Translations under genes and position numbers: made by a program
Notes under the pieces: model-generated
The model's database searches: none
The model's input: the letters and a program-made list of their open reading frames with translations, nothing else
What the model was told of the DNA's origin: nothing
Part shown: one piece after another, positions 10,105-43,771 of the stretch
Layout: the number at the start of each line of letters is the position of its first letter
Position numbering within the stretch: position 1 is the first letter of the stretch
Source: Candidatus Harrisonbacteria bacterium RIFCSPHIGHO2_02_FULL_42_16
GTDB lineage: Bacteria; Patescibacteriota; Minisyncoccia; UBA6257; 02-FULL-45-10c
NCBI GenBank assembly: GCA_001818695.1
Contig: MHJG01000009.1
Span: 309-64,308, forward strand
DNA length: 64,000 nucleotides
Direction of reading: 5' to 3'

Positions 10105-10629
10105 TTACCATCCCCAACCCCAACCGGTTTTGCCGCATTGTTCCGAAAGATATCCCTGTGTTTCAACGTAATGCAGTTCGCGTTTTCCGAAATGAATATC
10201 CACGGAGACATCACGGTCAGGCGGCACATCAACATAACAGGTATAAGTGCCGATGAATTTTCCGGCTTTTTTAATCTCCAAAGATAAGGTTTCCCGGCGA
10301 TACTGCCCGGTTCCGTTCCAGGGCAGTGGCAGAGAATAATGATTTCCAAAACTTAACATCACTGCTTTTTGGTTAAGTTTTTCTCTGCCGAGCCATAATG
10401 ATTTCGGGTCTCTTTTTCCCGCAGTGTATTCAGAAATTATTCCATTGCCTCTGTAGAGCGGTTTTGCGGTGGTGCGCGGCGCGTCATTGTGAATCGTGAG
10501 CCAAGAGCGATACAGCGAGAACCCCGTTGTTGCTATCTTGACTCGCGTTCCTTGCTGAAGCGTTCCGCAACCAGTCATTCCCATTCCCAACAAAGCGAAC
10601 ATCAGAAGCCCAGTTAATTTTCTTTTCAT
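10105..10629 (-). CDS. lipoprotein (signal peptide with lipobox MTGC), C-terminal GWGWGW tail
   Basis: MKRKLTGLLMFALLGMGMTGC lipobox. No known domain is recognised. Confidence 0.55.
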   Translation of the reverse strand: MKRKLTGLLMFALLGMGMTGCGTLQQGTRVKIATTGFSLYRSWLTIHNDAPRTTAKPLYRGNGIISEYTAGKRDPKSLWLGREKLNQKAVMLSFGNHYSLPLPWNGTGQYRRETLSLEIKKAGKFIGTYTCYVDVPPDRDVSVDIHFGKRELHYVETQGYLSEQCGKTGWGWGW

Positions 10630-35388: not shown

Positions 35389-38300
35389 TTAGATTTTTTT
35401 GACCCCAATCCAAATTGGCTCTTCGTTAAGTTTTGAATTTAATTCCGCGTCAAATTTTCCGGTTTTTTTAAATTCAATTGATTTTGCGCCCACTTCTTTT
35501 TTAAGAAAATTCGCATTTTTTTCCAGCGTGGTCTTATACGCCTGGGTATCAATCATTAGCGCGATGGTGTCTTTGGGAATATAATTCGCGTCATGCCTGA
35601 GGCCCTGCACCATTCGTGCCAATTCTCTTAACAGTCCCTCTTCCTGAAGTTCGGGCGTAATTTTAAAATCCAGATTAACTTCATTTTTAATAACCATATT
35701 CCAATTAACTTTTTTTACGTTCACTTCATTTTTTATAACTTCTATCAATTCCGTGTCTCTTGCGTCAATTTTTGAACTTTTAATTTCCAGTGTTTGAAGC
35801 GGCTGGCGGACTTTAACGCCTTTTTCAGCGCGGAGCGCTAAGGCCAGGCCGGAAATTCGCCTAACTTCCTCCATTTTTTCCAAAAGCGAATAATCCATTT
35901 CTTTTTCATCGGCTTTGGGCCAGGCATCTAAATGTACCGAGTTTTTAATTTGCTGATTTTTATTTTTTGTTAAAGAAAGATAAAGAGCTTCAGCAAAGAA
36001 CGGCGTGAACGGAGCGATTAATTTGCTCAAAACAAAAAGCGAATAATAAAGGGTTTCGGAAGCCGATTTAAAGTCATTTTTATTTTTCGGTTTCTGCAAT
36101 CGGCTTCGGGAGCGCCGGATATACCACCTAGAAAGGTCGTCTACGAAGATTTCAATTGACTTGGCAGAGCCGCTAATGTCGTATTTTTCTAAATTTTCGG
36201 TTGCGTCCGCGGCGGTTTTATTAAGTTTTGATATAATCCAGCGGTCTAAAATATTTGTGCTTGGAGTCGGAAGCCGGGAGTTAGAAGTTTTTTCCGCGTA
36301 GGTATTCCAGAATACGAATGAATTATAAATAATCATTATAAATTTTCGCAAGGTTTTTCCCAAATCTAATTCGTCAAACACTTTCGGTTCTCCCGGAATC
36401 GTTTGGGTATAAAAATACCAGCGCAGGGTGTCTGCTCCGTATTTGTCCATCATTTCCCGCGGATTTATTGCATTACCTCTGGATTTAGACATTTTTTTTC
36501 CGAATTTGTCCAAAATATGGCCTTGAGTAACCACATTTAAATAGGGCGTGTTTTTTTTCAAAAGAGTGGCAATCGCCAGCAGGGAGTAGAACCAGCCGCG
36601 AGTTTGGTCGATTCCTTCGCTGATATAATCTGCCGGAAAAGCGAGCTGCTTATCAATTAAATCTTTATTTTCAAATGGGTAATGCCATTGGGCGTAGGGC
36701 ATGGCGCCGGAATCAAACCAGATATCGGCAACCTCTTTGACCCTTATCATTTTTCCGTCGCATTTAGCGCATTTTAAATGAATTTTATCCATATAGGGCC
36801 TATGTAAATCTAATTCTCCAACAGGATTATACGGCCAGTTATGCAATTCGGTTTTTTTAGCTATGCCATTAACTTTTATATAATTTAGCTTTAAAATTTC
36901 TTCATTGGATAATCCCCGCATCGCTCCTTCCAAAACCCAAAGCGGGTCGCCATGACTGACAATCAAAATATTTTTTCCATTATAACGGGAATTGATGTCT
37001 ATAATCGCTTCCAGCATTCTTTTTTTCACTTCATTTAAATTTTCTCCGCCCGGACAAATTTTAGTAAAGCGTTCCAGGTCGTTTTTGTGAAACTTATGGT
37101 GTTCTTCAACCGGGCGCCAATTAAAAATTCCGCAGTTTATTTCCGAAAGCCGTTTATCTATTATTACTCTGGATTTTGTGATTTTGGCGGCTATTTTTGC
37201 GGTTTCTTTGGTGCGGTTATACGGGGAAGCAAAAATAAAATCCAGTTTTTTATTGCCAAGCTCCTTTTTTAAATTTATAGCCGCCGATTCCGCGTTTTTT
37301 TTGCCTTTTATGGTAAGCCGGGAAATGTTTTTTCCGTGTTCCGGTCCGGAGGCGATAAGGTTGTTTAAATTATGTTCCGCTTCTCCATGCCGAAGTAGCC
37401 AAAAATTATTTTGGGAATATCTTAATTTGTCCAAATCCTCCAAACTTCCGATTACTTCCGTATGTCCACACTGTTCTTTTGTTCGCATGGGCGCGTTCGC
37501 ATTTCGCGAGGCCTTAGCCGAGCGAGCGCCATTCGCGTGCTGCCAGATTGGCAACGGCGTGCCCCAATAGCGATTTCTGGAAATTGACCAGTCCTTTACT
37601 TCCTTAAGCCATTCGCCGAACCGCCCCTGTTTTATATGTTCCGGAACCCAGTTAATTTTTTTGCCGTTGGCAATGATTTCATCGCGAAGCTTGCTCATTT
37701 CTATAAACCAGGAAAATTTCGCCATATAAAGAAGAGGGGTGTCGCATCGCCAGCAGAACGGATATTCGTGTTCATAACTGCCCGCTTTTAAAAGCGCTTT
37801 GGTTTTTTCTAAATGGCTGACAATATCCCGGTCGGCTGTTTTGGCCGGTTTGCCGGCTCCGGGCAAACCCTTTGCAACCATACCCCTGTCATCTACTGTA
37901 ATTGGGATATCATTAATTTTTAACTTTTCGCTTTTAACGCTTAATACTTCCTGCATAAGTTTCATATCGTTTTCGCCGAAAGCCGGAGCGATATGTACCA
38001 AGCCGGTGCCTTCTTCAGTAGAAACGAAGTCGGCGCCGCATACTTTAAAAAATTTGCTGTTTTTTTGCCAAGCCCCTTTTACGTTAAATAGCTGTTTATA
38101 TTTTAAGCCGATTAGTTTTTTTCCGGACATTTTTTCAATCACTTCATATTTAACATTATCTATTGTCGGCGGAGCGTTATATGACCACAAATATTCATTG
38201 CCTATCTTATATTTGGTATAGGTAAGCTTCGGATTAACCGCAATAGCGACATTTGCCGGCAAAGTCCACGGCGTGGTGGTCCAAATCAAAAGGTATTCAT

Positions 38301-38991
38301 TACCTTTTGATTTGCCCGCCGAAGCTTTAGTGAGGGAGGGTTTTAATTCAAATTTTACATATACTGACGGGTCTTTCACCTTATGATACGCGCCAGGCAT
38401 TCCAAGTTCGTGGCTGGAAAGAGGCGTTTGGCAGCGGGTGCAGTAGGGAACAATTTTAAATGATTGGGTTAGCAGGCCGCGCTTGGCGATTTCTTTGAAA
38501 ATCCACCACAAACTTTCTATATAATCTGGCTTATAAGTAATATAAGGATTTTTTAAGTCCAGCCAAAAGCCGATTCGGTCCGTAAATTTTTCCCATTCGT
38601 CCTGATATTTCCAAACCGACGCCTTGGCTTTTTCATTGAATTCCGCGATGCCGAATTTTTCAATTTCTTGTTTATTTTTCAAACCCAGCTCTTTTTCCAC
38701 CTCAATTTCTACCGGCAATCCTTGCGTGTCCCAGCCGGCTTTCCGGCGGACAAAAAATCCGCGCATGGTTTTATACCGGCAAATAATATCTTTAAAGGCG
38801 CGGCCTTCCGCGTGGCCCATGTGCGGCTGGCCGTTGGCTGTCGGTGGCCCTTCAAAAAACCTGAATACTTTCCGCGTTAATCCGCGCATATCCGCAGTTT
38901 GAGTTTTCTCAAAAATCTTATTTTCCTTCCAGAATTTAAGGACTTTTTCCTCTATCTCCGGCAATTTAAATTCTTTAAGCTTTTGTAACAT
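35389..38991 (-). CDS. ileS: isoleucyl-tRNA synthetase (type 2) with an in-frame histidine-phosphatase (PGAM-like) domain insertion
   Basis: HMGH (PHMGHAEGRA), CP1 editing domain, KMSKS (KMSKSRGN), anticodon-binding C-terminus. 1200 aa. Insert of about 237 aa lies between RYWGTPLPIWQHANG and ELDLHRPYMD. Confidence 0.9.
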   Translation of the reverse strand: MLQKLKEFKLPEIEEKVLKFWKENKIFEKTQTADMRGLTRKVFRFFEGPPTANGQPHMGHAEGRAFKDIICRYKTMRGFFVRRKAGWDTQGLPVEIEVEKELGLKNKQEIEKFGIAEFNEKAKASVWKYQDEWEKFTDRIGFWLDLKNPYITYKPDYIESLWWIFKEIAKRGLLTQSFKIVPYCTRCQTPLSSHELGMPGAYHKVKDPSVYVKFELKPSLTKASAGKSKGNEYLLIWTTTPWTLPANVAIAVNPKLTYTKYKIGNEYLWSYNAPPTIDNVKYEVIEKMSGKKLIGLKYKQLFNVKGAWQKNSKFFKVCGADFVSTEEGTGLVHIAPAFGENDMKLMQEVLSVKSEKLKINDIPITVDDRGMVAKGLPGAGKPAKTADRDIVSHLEKTKALLKAGSYEHEYPFCWRCDTPLLYMAKFSWFIEMSKLRDEIIANGKKINWVPEHIKQGRFGEWLKEVKDWSISRNRYWGTPLPIWQHANGARSAKASRNANAPMRTKEQCGHTEVIGSLEDLDKLRYSQNNFWLLRHGEAEHNLNNLIASGPEHGKNISRLTIKGKKNAESAAINLKKELGNKKLDFIFASPYNRTKETAKIAAKITKSRVIIDKRLSEINCGIFNWRPVEEHHKFHKNDLERFTKICPGGENLNEVKKRMLEAIIDINSRYNGKNILIVSHGDPLWVLEGAMRGLSNEEILKLNYIKVNGIAKKTELHNWPYNPVGELDLHRPYMDKIHLKCAKCDGKMIRVKEVADIWFDSGAMPYAQWHYPFENKDLIDKQLAFPADYISEGIDQTRGWFYSLLAIATLLKKNTPYLNVVTQGHILDKFGKKMSKSRGNAINPREMMDKYGADTLRWYFYTQTIPGEPKVFDELDLGKTLRKFIMIIYNSFVFWNTYAEKTSNSRLPTPSTNILDRWIISKLNKTAADATENLEKYDISGSAKSIEIFVDDLSRWYIRRSRSRLQKPKNKNDFKSASETLYYSLFVLSKLIAPFTPFFAEALYLSLTKNKNQQIKNSVHLDAWPKADEKEMDYSLLEKMEEVRRISGLALALRAEKGVKVRQPLQTLEIKSSKIDARDTELIEVIKNEVNVKKVNWNMVIKNEVNLDFKITPELQEEGLLRELARMVQGLRHDANYIPKDTIALMIDTQAYKTTLEKNANFLKKEVGAKSIEFKKTGKFDAELNSKLNEEPIWIGVKKI

Positions 38992-39144
38992 ATCTTTATA
39001 TAATAGGGAAAAATTAGCTTATTTTCAAATAAAAAACCGCTTCGCGAGAAGCGGCGTTACTTTGGAATTCTTTTATGCGCTTTTTTAAGACGCGCAATGA
39101 CTTTGTATAATCTTTTAAGCAGTTTAATTTCATCCTTTATAGAT

Positions 39145-39276
39145 TTAAAGATTACGAAATACTCTTTGGCTTTTCTCGCTTAAAGTATGATGAACTGCAA
39201 CATTTATTTGGGCCGCATCCACTTTATTGGGATGAGGAAAATTTATGATACTCCGACGTATTATTTCTTTTTTCAT
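39145..39276 (-). CDS. small hypothetical protein (43 aa) with G-rich SD and own terminator
   Basis: MKKEIIRRSIINFPHPNKVDAAQINVAVHHTLSEKSQRVFRNL. SD GAGGGG four nt upstream. Terminator at 39033-39067. Confidence 0.3.
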   Translation of the reverse strand: MKKEIIRRSIINFPHPNKVDAAQINVAVHHTLSEKSQRVFRNL

Positions 39277-39376
39277 TTGCCCCTCACTTTTGAGTTCTAA
39301 ATACAATAGTATATTGTTATGCCTATTTGTCAACAAAAAACCGCCTATTTAGAAAGCGGTTAAATTTGGAAGTGGT

Positions 39377-39682
39377 CTAATCAACTGTAAATAATCCCAT
39401 ATCTTCTTGTGATACTTTTCCGATGACAAGGCCTAAAGAGTTATCCCTCTCCAAATATTTATCAAGAGCTTCGTAGGATTTGCTGTAGGCAATTAAATAT
39501 TGGTATTTTTCTTCTTTCAAAAGAACTTCATACCAGCCAGTATGTTTAAAGTTTTTAAGTTTTTTGTATACTTGTTTGGATTTTCTTTGTCTTGATTGCG
39601 CGGATTCTTTTGGGTTCCACCGAAGCACAAAAACATCGGCTTCTCCGGTCGCATATCTTACTCTAACTCTTTTTTCTTTCAT
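39377..39682 (-). CDS. small basic hypothetical protein (about 101 aa)
   Basis: MKEKRVRVRYATGEADVFVLRWNPK... SD AGAGGGGGT. Own terminator at 39336-39362. Confidence 0.4.
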   Translation of the reverse strand: MKEKRVRVRYATGEADVFVLRWNPKESAQSRQRKSKQVYKKLKNFKHTGWYEVLLKEEKYQYLIAYSKSYEALDKYLERDNSLGLVIGKVSQEDMGLFTVD

Positions 39683-39791
39683 TTTTACCCCCTCTTTCGA
39701 AATTAATAGCAAAGACCTAATTTAATAATAAGGCAGATATTATTTTTGTCAAATAAAAACCGCTCTCATGGAAGCGGCGTTAAATATTACT

Positions 39792-40040
39792 TCAAACAAA
39801 TTCTTTTCGGATTGTTTTGGCTATTCTAATGAACGTAGCTTTATTCACCCACTGACCGTTATATTTTTTATGAAATCGCCACCAAGATTTATTTTTTCTA
39901 AGCGTTAAAAATCTAATCTCTCCTATATTATAATTTTCATCCTGAGTCCAAACTTCTATTCTGCCAGCAACATAACCAAAATAATTTTTATTCAATACTG
40001 CCTCTTCCACAAAAACGAGTAGATACTTACCTTTTTTCAA
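39792..40040 (-). CDS. small basic hypothetical protein (82 aa, TTG start)
   Basis: (M)KKGKYLLVFVEEAVLNKNYFGYVAGRIEVW... SD GGGAGGGG. Own terminator at 39750-39784. Confidence 0.4.
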   Translation of the reverse strand: MKKGKYLLVFVEEAVLNKNYFGYVAGRIEVWTQDENYNIGEIRFLTLRKNKSWWRFHKKYNGQWVNKATFIRIAKTIRKEFV

Positions 40041-40105
40041 TTTTAACCCCTCCCTACTAAGACGCTACATTCATTTAATCACGAAATTTAAATTTTTCAA
40101 AATTA

Positions 40106-41716
40106 CTACATTTTCTTCGGCTTGCTGATGCCGAGGATGCTAAATAGATTTTCCAGCGCGATTTTTGTCGCGGAAACGAGCGCGAGGCGCGCTTGAGCTG
40201 TCTCTGGCTCGGCATCAATAACCCGTTCTTTTTCATAAAAGTTATGGAATGAACGCGCCAGCCGGGCGGCGTATTCTGTTAACCGATGCACTTGGTAATC
40301 TTTCACGGTTTGCGCCAAAACATCCGGAAATTTCATCAATTCCAGCATAAGCTTAATTTCAGTGATAGAATTTAGCATTTTTAAATTATTATTTGTCGCT
40401 TGTCGCTTGTCGCTTGTCGCTTTTCGTAAGATGTGTAAACATCTTACGAAAGCGTACTGAACATAATAAACCGGATTTTTCTGCGAACGTTCTTTTGCCA
40501 AATCCATATCAAAATCCATATGCGTGTCCAAAGAGTGCATTAAAAAGAAAAATCTGGCGGCATCCAAACCGACTTCTTTTAGCAAATCATCCAGCGTTAC
40601 AAATTCACCGGCGCGCTTGGACATCTTCACTTCTTTTCCTTTGCTTATCAGCCGCACTAATTGGGTAATTAAAATTTTAAGCCGTTTCGGTTTTACGCCC
40701 AGCGCTCTAATGCCGCTTTCCATTCGCGCTTTATAGCCGTGGTGGTCTGCTCCCCAGATATCAATCGCCAAATCAAATTTTCTTTTTAAAAATTTATCGT
40801 AATGATAAGCCAAATCCGCTAAAAAATAAGTCGGATTGCCGTCGGATTTTATCAAAACAGCATCTTTTAGCCACATAGCCCCATCTTTTTCATAAACCAC
40901 CTTTTTTCCCTTGAGAAATTTTAATGTTTTTTTGAGCTCTCCTTTTTTATGTAAATTTTTATCTTCCGAAAACCAAATATCGTGCTTGATGCCCGCATTT
41001 TTAAGAGATTTTTTTATTTCTTTAAATAAAATTTTAGCCGCTTCTTTTCCGATTTTTTCGCCATCGTAATTTTTTACTTTTAACTTTAAACTTTTAACTA
41101 AGTCCTTGACGTATTCTCCTTTATAATACTCATCTTTCCAGGGAATTTTTCCTTCAGCCGCCAAAATGCTTTCTCCCAAGAGCTTGATTTGATTGCCGGC
41201 ATCGTTAATATAGTATTCTCGCGTTACTTTATGGCCGGAATTTTCTAATACATTCGCCAGAACATCGCCATAAAATCCGGCGCGGCCGTTGGCCATAGTC
41301 AGCGGACCGGTTGGGTTGGCGGAAACGAATTCAAGGTTTATTGTTCGATGTTTGGTGTTTGGTGTTTGGTGTTTTAAACTGCCATATTTATTTTTTTGTT
41401 TTAGTATTGCTTTCAGTTCATTCTGCAGAATTTCCGGTTTCAGCCAAAAATTTACGAAACCCGGCGACACCGCTTCGATTTTAGCAAAAATCGATTTTGA
41501 GCTTGTTGGGGGGCTACTTAATTTTGATGCTATTTCTTTTGCGATTTCAAACGGCGTCTTTCCCGCCATCCCCGAAGAAGCTTTGTTTGTCGGGGTAAAC
41601 TTAAAAGCCATATTTGTAGAATAGTGTCCAAAATTTTCCTTTTCGGAAGCAAAAACTTCAATACCTATTTTTTCTTTAATTGCTTTTTGAAGCTGGTTTT
41701 TGATTTGCTCAATCAT
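40106..41716 (-). CDS. argS: arginyl-tRNA synthetase
   Basis: ArgRS N-terminal add-on domain, catalytic core SANPTGPL(TMAN)GR in place of HIGH, KMSKR, DALR anticodon-binding domain. Confidence 0.9.
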   Translation of the reverse strand: MIEQIKNQLQKAIKEKIGIEVFASEKENFGHYSTNMAFKFTPTNKASSGMAGKTPFEIAKEIASKLSSPPTSSKSIFAKIEAVSPGFVNFWLKPEILQNELKAILKQKNKYGSLKHQTPNTKHRTINLEFVSANPTGPLTMANGRAGFYGDVLANVLENSGHKVTREYYINDAGNQIKLLGESILAAEGKIPWKDEYYKGEYVKDLVKSLKLKVKNYDGEKIGKEAAKILFKEIKKSLKNAGIKHDIWFSEDKNLHKKGELKKTLKFLKGKKVVYEKDGAMWLKDAVLIKSDGNPTYFLADLAYHYDKFLKRKFDLAIDIWGADHHGYKARMESGIRALGVKPKRLKILITQLVRLISKGKEVKMSKRAGEFVTLDDLLKEVGLDAARFFFLMHSLDTHMDFDMDLAKERSQKNPVYYVQYAFVRCLHILRKATSDKRQATNNNLKMLNSITEIKLMLELMKFPDVLAQTVKDYQVHRLTEYAARLARSFHNFYEKERVIDAEPETAQARLALVSATKIALENLFSILGISKPKKM

Positions 41717-42412: not shown

Positions 42413-42753
42413 GGGAGTGAAAAGCTTCGACAAATTATTTTCTATCAAATTAGCAAGCGGAGTGGCAACCTCATTAAAAGTTGCAAAACAATAAGTGCAA
42501 ACTTATTCAACAAACAGCCAGCTTTAGCTTACGCTTAACTGGCCATCGCTCAACTAAAGCTTGATAAGTTATTAAGCGGTGTCAAACATCAAGCTCTGCC
42601 TTGATACGCTGATATTCAAGGCGAAACTAATCAGCACAAAGTTTAAAGTGTTTTGTTAGATTATAGCTTTAAATTTTTCAAAATAATCTGACTAAGCTTG
42701 TAGAAAATTTGATAGTAATAATTTGGACGCGGATGCAATTTCCGCCACTTCCA
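42413..42753 (+). ncRNA. ssrA: tmRNA (transfer-messenger RNA)
   Basis: Starts 4 nt after the smpB stop. 5' GGGAGUG pairs with 3' CACUUCC (G3:U wobble as in tRNA-Ala), then discriminator A. T-arm GCGGA-UGCAAUU-UCCGC. Tag ORF GCA AAC UUA UUC AAC AAA CAG CCA GCU UUA GCU UAC GCU UAA (ANLFNKQPALAYA*) has the same ..AAUARGUNGCAAAC.. context as E. coli. Confidence 0.65.
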
Positions 42754-42825
42754 CTCCTTCGCTAAAACTACGGAGTGCGAGCACTACTTCAATAAAAAGT
42801 GCGAGCATTATTAGCTTTACCAAAA

Positions 42826-42897: not shown

Positions 42898-43153
42898 ATG
42901 TTAATAATTCTGTATGTCCTACGTCTATATTTTATAAAGCCAAAAAGATAAAAGTTATTACACTGGTGTTACAGAAAATTTGTCAGAAAGATTAAAAGCC
43001 CATAACTGGCAGACAGTAAAAATAACTAAATCAAAAACTCCTTATGAAATAGTTTGGTTTTGCGCTTTTGTAGATAAAAATAAAGCAATGGATTTTGAAA
43101 AATATTTAAAATCTGGATCAGGCATAGCCTTTCGTAATAAACATTTACTTTAA
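42898..43153 (+). pseudogene. GIY-YIG (UPF0213/YhbQ-like) nuclease-family gene interrupted by a frameshift in an A5 run
   Basis: Frame A: MLIILYVLRLYFIKPKR* (42898-42951). The -1 frame continues KDKSYYTGVTENLSERLKAHNWQ...SGSGIAFRNKHLL* to 43153. GIY..YIG..N.E.RL..H is the family signature. Confidence 0.5.
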
Positions 43154-43315
43154 TAAAACTTTATTTATCGCTTATTTTGGGTTTTCCAGAATTTACAAAA
43201 GATATCTAAATAAAGAGGAATGATTGACAAGAGTTTAATTTATAACACTTAAATCTTGACTTATAAAATTATCTAAGCTAATCTGTAAAAAGGATCATTT
43301 ACAAAATAACATTGA

Positions 43316-43771
43316 ATGAAACAGAAAAAAGAATATTGGATTTCTTGTTTAGTAAATAAAAATCCTGCGCCAGTTGTGTTTTCAAGCGAAAGAATGGTTG
43401 TGATAGATTATTTAGATAGAAATCAACCGCAGTGGATTATCATTCAGTTAAGAAATGTAATCGAAGCAGGAAACTTTAGTAAGTTTTCCGACGAACTCAA
43501 TTTACTTATTCCGGCTTATATTTTAGTAACGCCAACGCAAAAAGATAAAAAAAATGTTTTTGTTTTTTTACATGATATTGATTGCCGCTCTGTCTGCTTA
43601 CCTATAAAACTTTTAATTCATGAAACAAGAGAAAATTTGCAACGATTACTAAATGTTTTAGATTCCGTTGAATCGTTTACTAAAAAATGGTCTAAAAATA
43701 ATATTCAAATAGTTAATTCTGATTTAGTATTTGATTTACAAAAAGGTAAATTGAAAAGAAAAAGAGCTTAA
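43316..43771 (+). CDS. hypothetical protein (ORFan, AT-rich islet)
   Basis: 151-aa ORF in a very AT-rich stretch downstream of ssrA. No recognisable domain. Confidence 0.4.
   Translation: MKQKKEYWISCLVNKNPAPVVFSSERMVVIDYLDRNQPQWIIIQLRNVIEAGNFSKFSDELNLLIPAYILVTPTQKDKKNVFVFLHDIDCRSVCLPIKLLIHETRENLQRLLNVLDSVESFTKKWSKNNIQIVNSDLVFDLQKGKLKRKRA

Follow-up and report, generated by a model that had tools for sequence, protein, structure and literature searches.

Introduction

Integration hot spots and variable spacers between conserved core genes are a general concept in bacterial genomes. The locus described here raises a narrower question: how did three small genes, separated by hairpins and promoters that resemble one another, come to lie between argS and ileS, and what exactly was duplicated? 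The locus belongs to a 64,000-nt stretch of contig MHJG01000009.1 from Candidatus Harrisonbacteria bacterium RIFCSPHIGHO2_02_FULL_42_16 (the whole stretch is called the window below). The argS–ileS spacer is 1.1 kb long here and holds three open reading frames (ORFs) on the minus strand, termed ORF A (82 aa), ORF B (101 aa) and ORF C (43 aa) in the order of transcription. A first-pass annotation of the window had already placed these three ORFs between argS and ileS, with coordinates and motifs that proved correct apart from the qualifications given below, and had interpreted them as a tandemly duplicated expression module.

Part of that interpretation stands: a terminator and a promoter appear to have been copied in tandem, in units whose layout suggests separate expression. 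The genes, however, were not part of the copy; to judge from the alignments, the duplicated item is a terminator-promoter punctuation of ~65 nt that derives from the module upstream of ileS in this clade. The three coding sequences appear to be unrelated and to have different histories, one being a member of a phage-borne family, one a strict orphan and one probably a decayed ORF. The islet that they form is, on balance, probably a moron-like set of insulated, separately transcribed, lineage-specific accessory genes that have the looks of horizontal acquisition.

Predicted Terminator-Promoter Modules of the Islet

The modules, all on the minus strand, share a hairpin of the type CCGC...GCGG followed by a T-tract, and a predicted promoter follows within a few nt of each hairpin. 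In the T1-P1 module (39715..39790), the hairpin (39778-39759) and its T-tract precede a −35 element TTGACA (39752-39747) and a −10 element TATTAT (39730-39725) at 16-nt spacing; in T2-P2 (39296..39375), the hairpin (39361-39339) and T-tract precede TTGACA (39333-39328) and TACTAT (39311-39306), also spaced by 16 nt; and in T3-P3 (38992..39070), the hairpin (39055-39036) and T-tract precede TTGAAA (39028-39023) and TATTAT (39005-39000), spaced by 17 nt. The −10 box of P3 ends 8 nt ahead of the ileS ATG, an arrangement of the leaderless type, and this third "promoter" is the ileS promoter itself. The hairpins have stems of 7–8 bp, loops of 4–7 nt and 5–6 U, with RNA folding energies of −9.9 (T1), −11.3 (T2) and −14.8 (T3) kcal/mol (z −2.1 to −3.3 vs. 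shuffles); all three display the anatomy of intrinsic terminators (GC-rich stem of at least 5 bp, loop of 3–8 nt, and a U-tract right after the hairpin, 3′ of a gene). For ORFs B and C, both a consensus promoter and a hairpin/T-tract terminator are predicted; ORF A has a terminator only, with no recognizable promoter of its own.

Several details of the first-pass description need adjustment. It had described each ORF as followed by a terminator; the stop codons of ORFs A and B lie 14–15 nt ahead of their own hairpins (15 nt from ORF B to T2), and the 43-aa ORF C ends ~90 nt short of T3. The common terminator sequence that it had reported, with a CGTTA tail, is found in all three hairpins as far as CCGC...GCGG is concerned, but CGTTA itself occurs in T1 and T3 only, the remaining one having GTTAA. 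The TTGACA boxes that it had noted are those of P1 and P2; the third, belonging to ileS, reads TTGAAA.

The recurrence of these signals in the window is well above the expectation from shuffled sequence. The hairpin motif AAAACCGC-N4-16-GCGG is present at 4 sites in 64 kb (5 matches if both strands of one palindromic hairpin are counted, with 0.41 matches expected), 3 of which are in the islet; the junction motif GCGGTTTTT-N1-4-TTGAMA occurs 3 times against 0.03 expected, always in the islet; and TTGACA-N16-18-TAYTAT occurs 4 times against 0.07 expected, twice in the islet. Stretches of ~80 nt, each with 12 nt of sequence on the 5′ side of the stem and 45 nt on its 3′ side, were aligned for 23 terminator-like sites of the window (245 pairs; median score 16, 95th percentile 25). 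The T1-T3 score of 53 is the maximum of the set, and T1-T2 (33) and T2-T3 (30) also exceed the 95th percentile. The alignment of T1 with T3 spans ~65 nt: it opens at TAAC, ahead of the stem, takes in the T-tract, ATTTGA and the spacer, and closes at CCTTATTAT-TAAA. It includes 12 identical nt over the left flank and arm, and the matches extend past what the hairpin structure requires. It had been allowed at the outset that the terminators might share only the generic GC hairpin of this genome; the comparison appears to refute a chance or generic origin of the shared TAACGCCGCTTC...GCGGTTTTTATTTGA sequence for T1 and T3, and excludes it weakly for T2. Homology among the copies stops right after the −10 box; the leader with its Shine-Dalgarno (SD) site and the ORF are unique to each unit.

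Comparison with related loci points to the source of the copies. Against the modules that precede ileS in two relatives, T3-P3 scores 66 (L023) and 59 (L016); it aligns with them over the hairpin, the T-tract, TTTGAAAATA, AATTTTTCC-TATTAT and the ATG; T3-P3 is therefore best regarded as the ancestral copy, orthologous to the relatives' ileS-upstream module. When the module was sought beyond the islet, as had been proposed, the composite motif CCGC-N6-16-GCGG-T5-8-N0-3-TTGA[AC]A was found three times in the window, always in the islet; 1.01 Mb of DNA from relatives contained two further occurrences, each at the orthologous site upstream of ileS. T1 has its best match in T3 (53), which argues that it is a recent paralogue of T3. 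T2 is a more diverged copy, with scores of 39 against the module of L139, 37 against that of L023, 33 against T1 and 30 against T3. In relatives with multi-gene spacers, the terminator modules are dissimilar (14–24; between-locus background median 16, 95th percentile 24), so that the triplication is a lineage-specific event rather than a general property of the argS–ileS hot spot.

ORF A and Its Phage-Borne Family

ORF A (39792..40040, minus strand; 82 aa; pI 10.1) has a TTG start codon and is preceded by the SD site GGGAGGGG (40047..40054, minus strand). A single-sequence search returned one relative, also of 82 aa (P0003; 36% identical; E = 7.6e-5), and a profile made from these two sequences retrieved more than 100 family proteins of ~80–86 aa, none of them with a Pfam domain except a longer protein of 124 aa (P0097) that has leucine-rich-repeat matches. 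A leave-one-out hidden Markov model (HMM) of the family matches ORF A over residues 1–81 with 87 bits (E = 2.4e-23), and ORF A matches the profile, with its family motifs SFVEE, GGRIEV and EEIRFLT, over the full length. In a 68-member alignment, all 7 invariant columns are kept in ORF A (E13, G26, R27, E29, E41, R43, and F44) and 3 of the 6 nearly invariant positions are changed (S9V, R57H, and D61N). On these similarities, ORF A is a diverged member of an uncharacterized, phage-borne family of small proteins. An AlphaFold2 model based on the family alignment (pLDDT 93, pTM 0.81) predicts a beta-beta-beta-alpha-beta-alpha topology; structure searches with this model gave no significant match, and neither did searches of PDB sequences for the family. 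Because there is no PHROGs entry for the family and tblastn of GenBank phage records with ORF A and P0044 found no match, the family is known from uncultivated phages only.

Every long contig with an ORF A homologue that was examined is phage-like. The family was found in 35 IMG/VR viral contigs, and the homologues occur in the company of genes for lysozyme, DUF3310 and a family-A DNA polymerase with UDG (L092–L095), of an SNF2 helicase and a pair resembling Mre11/SbcC (L096), of a capsid protein and an HK97-gp10-like gene (the contig of P0026), or of RNA ligase and primase-helicase (L135). When neighbors were clustered at 42 loci, genes for DUF5681 and the terminase large subunit proved to lie ~0.9–1 kb downstream of the family gene in 17 of them, and small membrane proteins flank it in 13–14; proximity to terminase/DUF5681 was the only conserved functional association at these loci, the immediate neighbors being without Pfam matches. 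At one locus (L101:3563-4234, among the phage-like loci L098–L136), the family gene and an HNH endonuclease share one uninterrupted reading frame, a possible fusion. The outcome is a widespread, unannotated family of small phage proteins with a confidently predicted fold, no structural neighbor and a frequent position next to terminase genes.

ORF A shares with the phage proteins the 7 invariant columns and an end-to-end match to the leave-one-out HMM. It differs from them in setting: the phage copies are located in tightly packed operons, often upstream of the terminase, whereas ORF A is chromosomal, stands alone and is led by an SD site. The phage homologues have no consistent SD, so the SD is not a trait of the family. 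Since ORF A lies on a bacterial chromosome and not in a phage context, it may be described as a phage-family gene stranded there, a reading drawn from its homologies.

ORFs B and C

ORF B (39377..39682, minus strand; 101 aa; pI 9.6), with the SD site AGAGGGGGT at 39687..39695 (minus strand), found itself alone in a word search of 5.8 billion proteins, and an exhaustive phmmer search of 1.84 billion cluster representatives likewise returned only the query; by these searches it appears to be a strict orphan. Its frame-0 coding score (0.357) is clearly the best of its frames and close to the genome mean (0.374). A single-sequence AlphaFold2 model is poor (pLDDT 55), a PDB sequence search gave no significant match, and matches to YccV-like (E = 0.007), YtkA and ZorD profiles were all sub-threshold and were not used.

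ORF C (39145..39276, minus strand; 43 aa) has the SD site GAGGGG (39280..39285, minus strand) and ends in the context CTT TAA A (39145-39150). The +1 frame continues for 29 codons (39057..39146, minus strand), encoding KSIKDEIKLLKRLYKVIARLKKAHKRIPK, to a TAA that abuts T3. The coding score of the 43-codon ORF is weak (0.087) and that of the +1 continuation is 0.40, against −0.05 and 0.13 in the other frames; ORF C and its continuation are probably the frameshifted remnant of a gene of ~72 codons. An assembly error is an unlikely cause of the frame break because the ORF C region is identical in every overlapping public contig. The 72-aa fusion has no homologue in the viral contigs or in 216 loci, the large protein databases not having been searched.

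Programmed +1 frameshifting in prfB, the gene for release factor RF2, takes place at CUU UGA C. The likeness of ORF C to this site lies in its CUU UAA A and in a +1 frame that stays open as far as the terminator, for 29 codons, and scores well as coding sequence; the differences are the other stop codon and the lack of an SD-like stimulator, which was not found 3 nt upstream. A simple frameshift mutation is likelier here than a programmed shift of the prfB kind, and the resemblance of the stop context is probably coincidental.

The proteins of 101 and 82 aa had been called loosely similar in the first-pass annotation, which had also recommended that the significance of pairwise alignments be examined; no pair of the three peptides aligns significantly. 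BLASTP gave no alignment of ORF A with ORF B at E ≤ 100, and a permissive all-against-all comparison returned short or Lys-rich, low-complexity matches only, that of A with B extending over 14 residues (E = 6.3). With filters off, the family HMM of ORF A matched neither ORF B nor ORF C. Pfam, NCBIfam, PHROGs, and PADLOC searches of the ORFs yielded nothing significant, and no ORF had a match above threshold in Pfam, NCBIfam, or PADLOC that would assign it to a toxin-antitoxin or defense system. The suggestion of a ribosome-associated, RNA-associated or toxin-like role gained no support from these four databases, from PDB sequence searches (ORF A family and ORF B) or from structure searches (ORF A).

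Composition and Translation Signals

The three small ORFs have a GC content of 31–35% and a GC content at third codon positions (GC3) of 23–30%, compared with 40.8 ± 4.3% and 41 ± 6%, respectively, for the 51 large genes of the window on which all large-gene statistics given here are based. The GC profile falls to a trough of 0.33 at 39000–40000 between flanks of 0.40–0.44. When an SD site is defined as GGAG, GAGG, AGGA, or GGGG located 3–11 nt ahead of the start codon, such a site leads each of the three small ORFs, at a distance of 3–8 nt, vs. 5 of the 51 large genes (Fisher p = 0.002). The strong G-run SDs to which attention had been drawn earlier are thus all present and represent a rare signal in this genome. 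In 13 of the 51 large genes, −10-like hexamers end 4–12 nt before the start codon, with a peak at 5–9 nt, which suggests that leaderless mRNAs, including that of ileS, are widespread.

Low GC and GC3 together with SD use suggest that the islet is foreign-looking, and SD-led translation, a minority mode here, is found in genes that seem to have been acquired. The SD does not mark foreign genes in general across the window, the other five SD-led genes being without unusually low GC3. Pfam gave no significant match for three of those five and a sub-threshold one only for a fourth (22735, 30806, 45752, and 32621).

The argS–ileS Spacer in Relatives

ArgRS of the window is 61–68% identical to ArgRS of Harrisonbacteria and of Paceibacter-type metagenome-assembled genomes, an identity that points to a genome of Paceibacteria (Parcubacteria, candidate phyla radiation, CPR) as the source. 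Of 80 relatives in GTDB, 54 have argS followed by ileS on the same strand, with a spacer that ranges from ~0 to 3.8 kb (<100 nt in 12, at least 600 nt in 22) and is a hypervariable position across Paceibacteria. The spacer contents are unrelated among relatives; examples are small membrane proteins and, encoded on the opposite strand, a protein of ~240 aa with a signal peptide. ORFs A, B, and C have no counterpart in any of 160 related loci. In three loci (L017, L070, and L020), the opposite-strand gene of ~240 aa has a signal-peptide-like N-terminus (MKALLVLAIL...) and a beta-rich look like that of outer-membrane proteins, which is unexpected for CPR bacteria.

Seven of the closest relatives carry a homologous gene of 95–128 aa at the position of the islet: three GTDB genomes (L023:8653-8940, L013:8703-9074, and L016:8894-9280) and four loci from JGI metagenomes (L137:3645-3935, L138:3015-3398, L139:1856-2143, and L141:91-399), the last four having IleRS N-terminal regions 72–80% identical to that of the window. 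A further contig (L140) begins inside this gene and has its 3′ end only. All three of the proteins compared with Pfam (L023, L016, and L013) had sub-threshold matches to Xre/MbcA/ParS_C antitoxin-like families; no toxin gene adjoins this antitoxin-like gene, and the gene is missing from the window. Downstream of it, the relatives have a hairpin of the type CCGCTTCC...GGCGG, then a T-tract and an ileS promoter of the leaderless type. In L016 (~10235-10400), ~170 nt of extra sequence separate the conserved ileS promoter and original ATG from the real ileS start, as if a short piece had been inserted precisely at the start codon of ileS.

A strain with 100% identical sequence at the locus recurs across groundwater metagenomes. 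The overlapping public contigs gave no population variant of the islet, the only "differences" being a run of Ns in one of them (L006).

Origin of the Islet

The arrangement in relatives suggests an ancestral order of argS, one small gene, a terminator hairpin with T-tract, the ileS promoter and leaderless ileS. The ancestral small gene is absent here, and its position would have been taken by ORF A, a diverged copy from a phage family; the orphan ORF B and ORF C, in which a frameshift has probably cut the frame short, would have been added, each with another copy of the ~65-nt terminator-promoter, the array perhaps growing by unequal or homologous recombination between module copies. In the arrangement seen today, the transcript of argS and ORF A would stop at T1, P1 would give rise to a monocistronic mRNA of ORF B that ends at T2, P2 would direct transcription of ORF C as far as T3, and P3 would serve leaderless ileS as it did in the ancestor, leaving ileS expression undisturbed by the insertions. 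The SD-led 5′ leaders would allow efficient translation of the three ORFs by a different initiation route from that of most genes, which are SD-less or leaderless. If this account is true, the islet offers a small-scale picture of how an ultra-small CPR genome gains accessory genes without disturbing an essential neighbor: the copied ileS terminator-promoter would insulate the newcomers while ileS keeps its native leaderless promoter. The event would be of a known kind, gene acquisition at a variable spot, and would not overturn current understanding.

The anatomy of the sequence, the non-random recurrence of its signals, the relationships among the modules, the base composition, the distribution among relatives and the family of ORF A are direct results; the activity of the signals, the foreign source and the sequence of events are proposals built on them. 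Several observations weigh against this account. ORF A has no promoter of its own and hence is not an autonomous unit, and the other promoters, like the terminators, were called by consensus matching, in a region where promoter-like sites overall are not above shuffles (9 vs. 5.7 ± 2.6). The likeness of T2 to the other copies (30–39) is just modestly above background. The coding signal of ORF C is weak, and ORF C may be dead. ORFs B and C are without homologues, so that composition is what suggests a foreign origin for them, and genes born de novo in spacer DNA could be expected to be AT-rich as well. The islet sits in the chromosome between housekeeping genes, with no mobile genes within 6 kb on either side to point to a route of entry, and there is no population variation by which the events could be dated or ordered.

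Had the whole expression module been triplicated in tandem, the three proteins would be diverged paralogues with a shared function, and the repeated terminator-promoter punctuation, the G-rich SD of every unit and the basic nature of all three proteins (pI 9.6–11) would be accounted for together. A basic pI is expected, however, of Lys-rich proteins from AT-rich DNA, no pair shows similarity by BLASTP, all-against-all comparison or the ORF A family HMM, the predicted secondary structures differ, and ORF A has more than 100 homologues while ORF B has none among 1.84 billion representatives, so that paralogy is extremely improbable. The opposite view, that nothing was duplicated and that unrelated genes acquired generic GC-rich terminators commonly followed by promoters, alike by convergence or chance, can point to CCGC- or GCGG-containing stems in other terminators of the window (e.g., 34053, 45730, and 50737), to terminators followed by promoters elsewhere (e.g., 63638 and 10088) and to the modest score of T2 above background. 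It is nevertheless improbable in light of the 65-nt alignment of T1 with T3, beyond structural need and at the top of the 245 pairs (53 vs. a 95th percentile of 25), the islet-only junction motif (3 vs. 0.03) and the composite motif, confined outside the islet to the relatives' orthologous ileS site. If the modules are instead recombination sites, either like the attC sites of integrons or as landing pads for homologous recombination, the islet would be an array that captures promoter-ready small genes; the modules do form direct repeats flanking each gene, the content of this hot spot varies across the clade, and T2, slightly nearer the relatives' ileS modules (39 for L139, 37 for L023) than T1 or T3 (33, 30), might have been imported with its gene. 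Capture of this kind is very improbable: hairpins of 20–23 nt with U-tracts have the anatomy of terminators, not the 55–140-nt architecture of attC, the cassettes carry promoters, there is no integrase within 6 kb on either side, the multi-gene spacers of relatives lack repeated modules (14–24), and cassette content does not vary across overlapping public contigs.

A further alternative concedes the duplication and doubts the genes, with ORF A as the sole functional gene, ORFs B and C as chance ORFs, relics or proto-genes in duplicated AT-rich spacer, and the modules as leftover copies of the ileS promoter. ORF B has no homologue anywhere searched and a poor AlphaFold2 model; for ORF C, whose search covered loci and viral contigs but not the large protein databases, none was found either, and it looks frameshifted and has a weak coding score; and the GC content of both is near that of intergenic DNA. 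Against this, an open run of 101 codons in 35%-GC DNA is improbable (~0.1% per start by our estimate), the coding score of ORF B equals the genome mean, both ORFs have consensus promoters and strong, well-spaced SDs of a kind that is rare here, and the ORF B stop codon lies just 15 nt ahead of T2. Taken as a whole this alternative is unlikely, being plausible for ORF C and less so for ORF B. A bolder reading would make the ileS-upstream module a reusable expression adaptor or landing pad, on which small foreign or newborn ORFs are stacked by module recombination, some copies perhaps imported from relatives, each ORF being insulated, transcribed and given a strong SD that privileges its translation, with ORF B recently born and ORF C producing a 72-aa protein through a CUU-UAA +1 frameshift; we regard it as speculative and give it only a slim chance.

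Comparison with Known Systems

Phage morons such as HK97 gene 15 are inserted between otherwise adjacent genes, deviate in GC content, and have their own σ70-type promoter and intrinsic terminator, which make their expression independent of the operon around them (Cumby, Davidson & Maxwell 2012, PMC3594210). The islet likewise comprises small genes between genes that are adjacent elsewhere, as seen from the 12 of 54 relatives with a gap below 100 nt and from the absence of ORFs A–C from the 160 loci; its ORFs are of deviant composition, and one of them is of a phage family. Consensus promoters and hairpin/T-tract terminators are predicted for ORFs B and C, and a terminator only for ORF A. The islet differs in being part of a bacterial chromosome, not of a phage or prophage, in the missing promoter of ORF A and in signals that were copied from a module already resident in the host, not brought in from outside. 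Because of the chromosomal replicon and the punctuation copied from the resident ileS module, the islet is called moron-like and is not filed as a moron. By analogy with morons and from the ancestry of ORF A, the islet genes might have a role in phage-host interaction, a suggestion that is tentative and rather doubtful.

With integration hot spots the islet shares conserved, syntenic flanks (argS and ileS) around variable, unrelated and often AT-rich content; it is distinguished from them by its very small size (1.1 kb, three genes) and by a site without integrase, tRNA, or mobile-element signature. Integron cassettes are promoterless, and their attC sites, of ~55–140 nt, have R″/L″/L′/R′ boxes, with intI nearby or several attC sites in a CALIN. 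Such arrays resemble the islet in that small ORFs stand in tandem and an imperfect inverted repeat, related to the others, comes after each of them; in the islet, however, the repeats are short U-tract terminators fused to promoters, the cassettes are not promoterless and no integrase is nearby. An integron attC array was accordingly rejected for the islet in view of U-tract hairpins of 20–23 nt followed by promoters and no recombinase within 6 kb, a judgment made without a formal attC covariance model.

Flanking Genes and Other Observations

The upstream flank of the islet is argS (40106..41716, minus strand; 536 aa), whose product on an identical contig has the Pfam domains Arg_tRNA_synt_N, tRNA-synt_1d and DALR_1; the downstream flank is ileS (35389..38991, minus strand; 1200 aa; ATG at 38991). 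A spacer of 65 nt (minus strand) separates argS from ORF A, and a scan of it found no terminator. The neighborhood includes smpB, the transfer-messenger RNA (tmRNA) gene, infC and rplT in addition to argS and ileS, and no prophage, integrase, transposase, recombinase or phage gene was found within 6 kb on either side of the islet. An Rfam scan of the argS–ileS spacer gave no match at gathering score, the sole match with E ≤ 1 being a spurious Bacteroides small RNA (sRNA; 24 bits vs. a 229-bit cutoff), and the spacer shows no member of a known RNA family (T-box, leaders, sRNAs).

IleRS contains a complete His_Phos_1 domain (PGAM-like, PF00300; residues 530–703, ~nt 36883-37404; E = 1.4e-28), inserted within the class-I catalytic domain ahead of the KMSKS motif. 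Many Paceibacteria relatives have this insertion, as seen in full-length alignments of 1200 aa, and some lack it (L032, L042, L076, and L082), their alignments being split and without ~residues 524–706. A full-text literature search returned no paper joining IleRS with terms for a histidine-phosphatase insertion.

A second islet, richer still in AT (42980-43771; GC 27–31%, GC3 17–20%), lies directly 3′ of the tmRNA gene (42413-42756). It encodes a 57-aa fragment of a GIY-YIG nuclease and a protein of 151 aa for which neither Pfam nor PADLOC gave a match. It has the appearance of a remnant, left by an element that integrated at ssrA.

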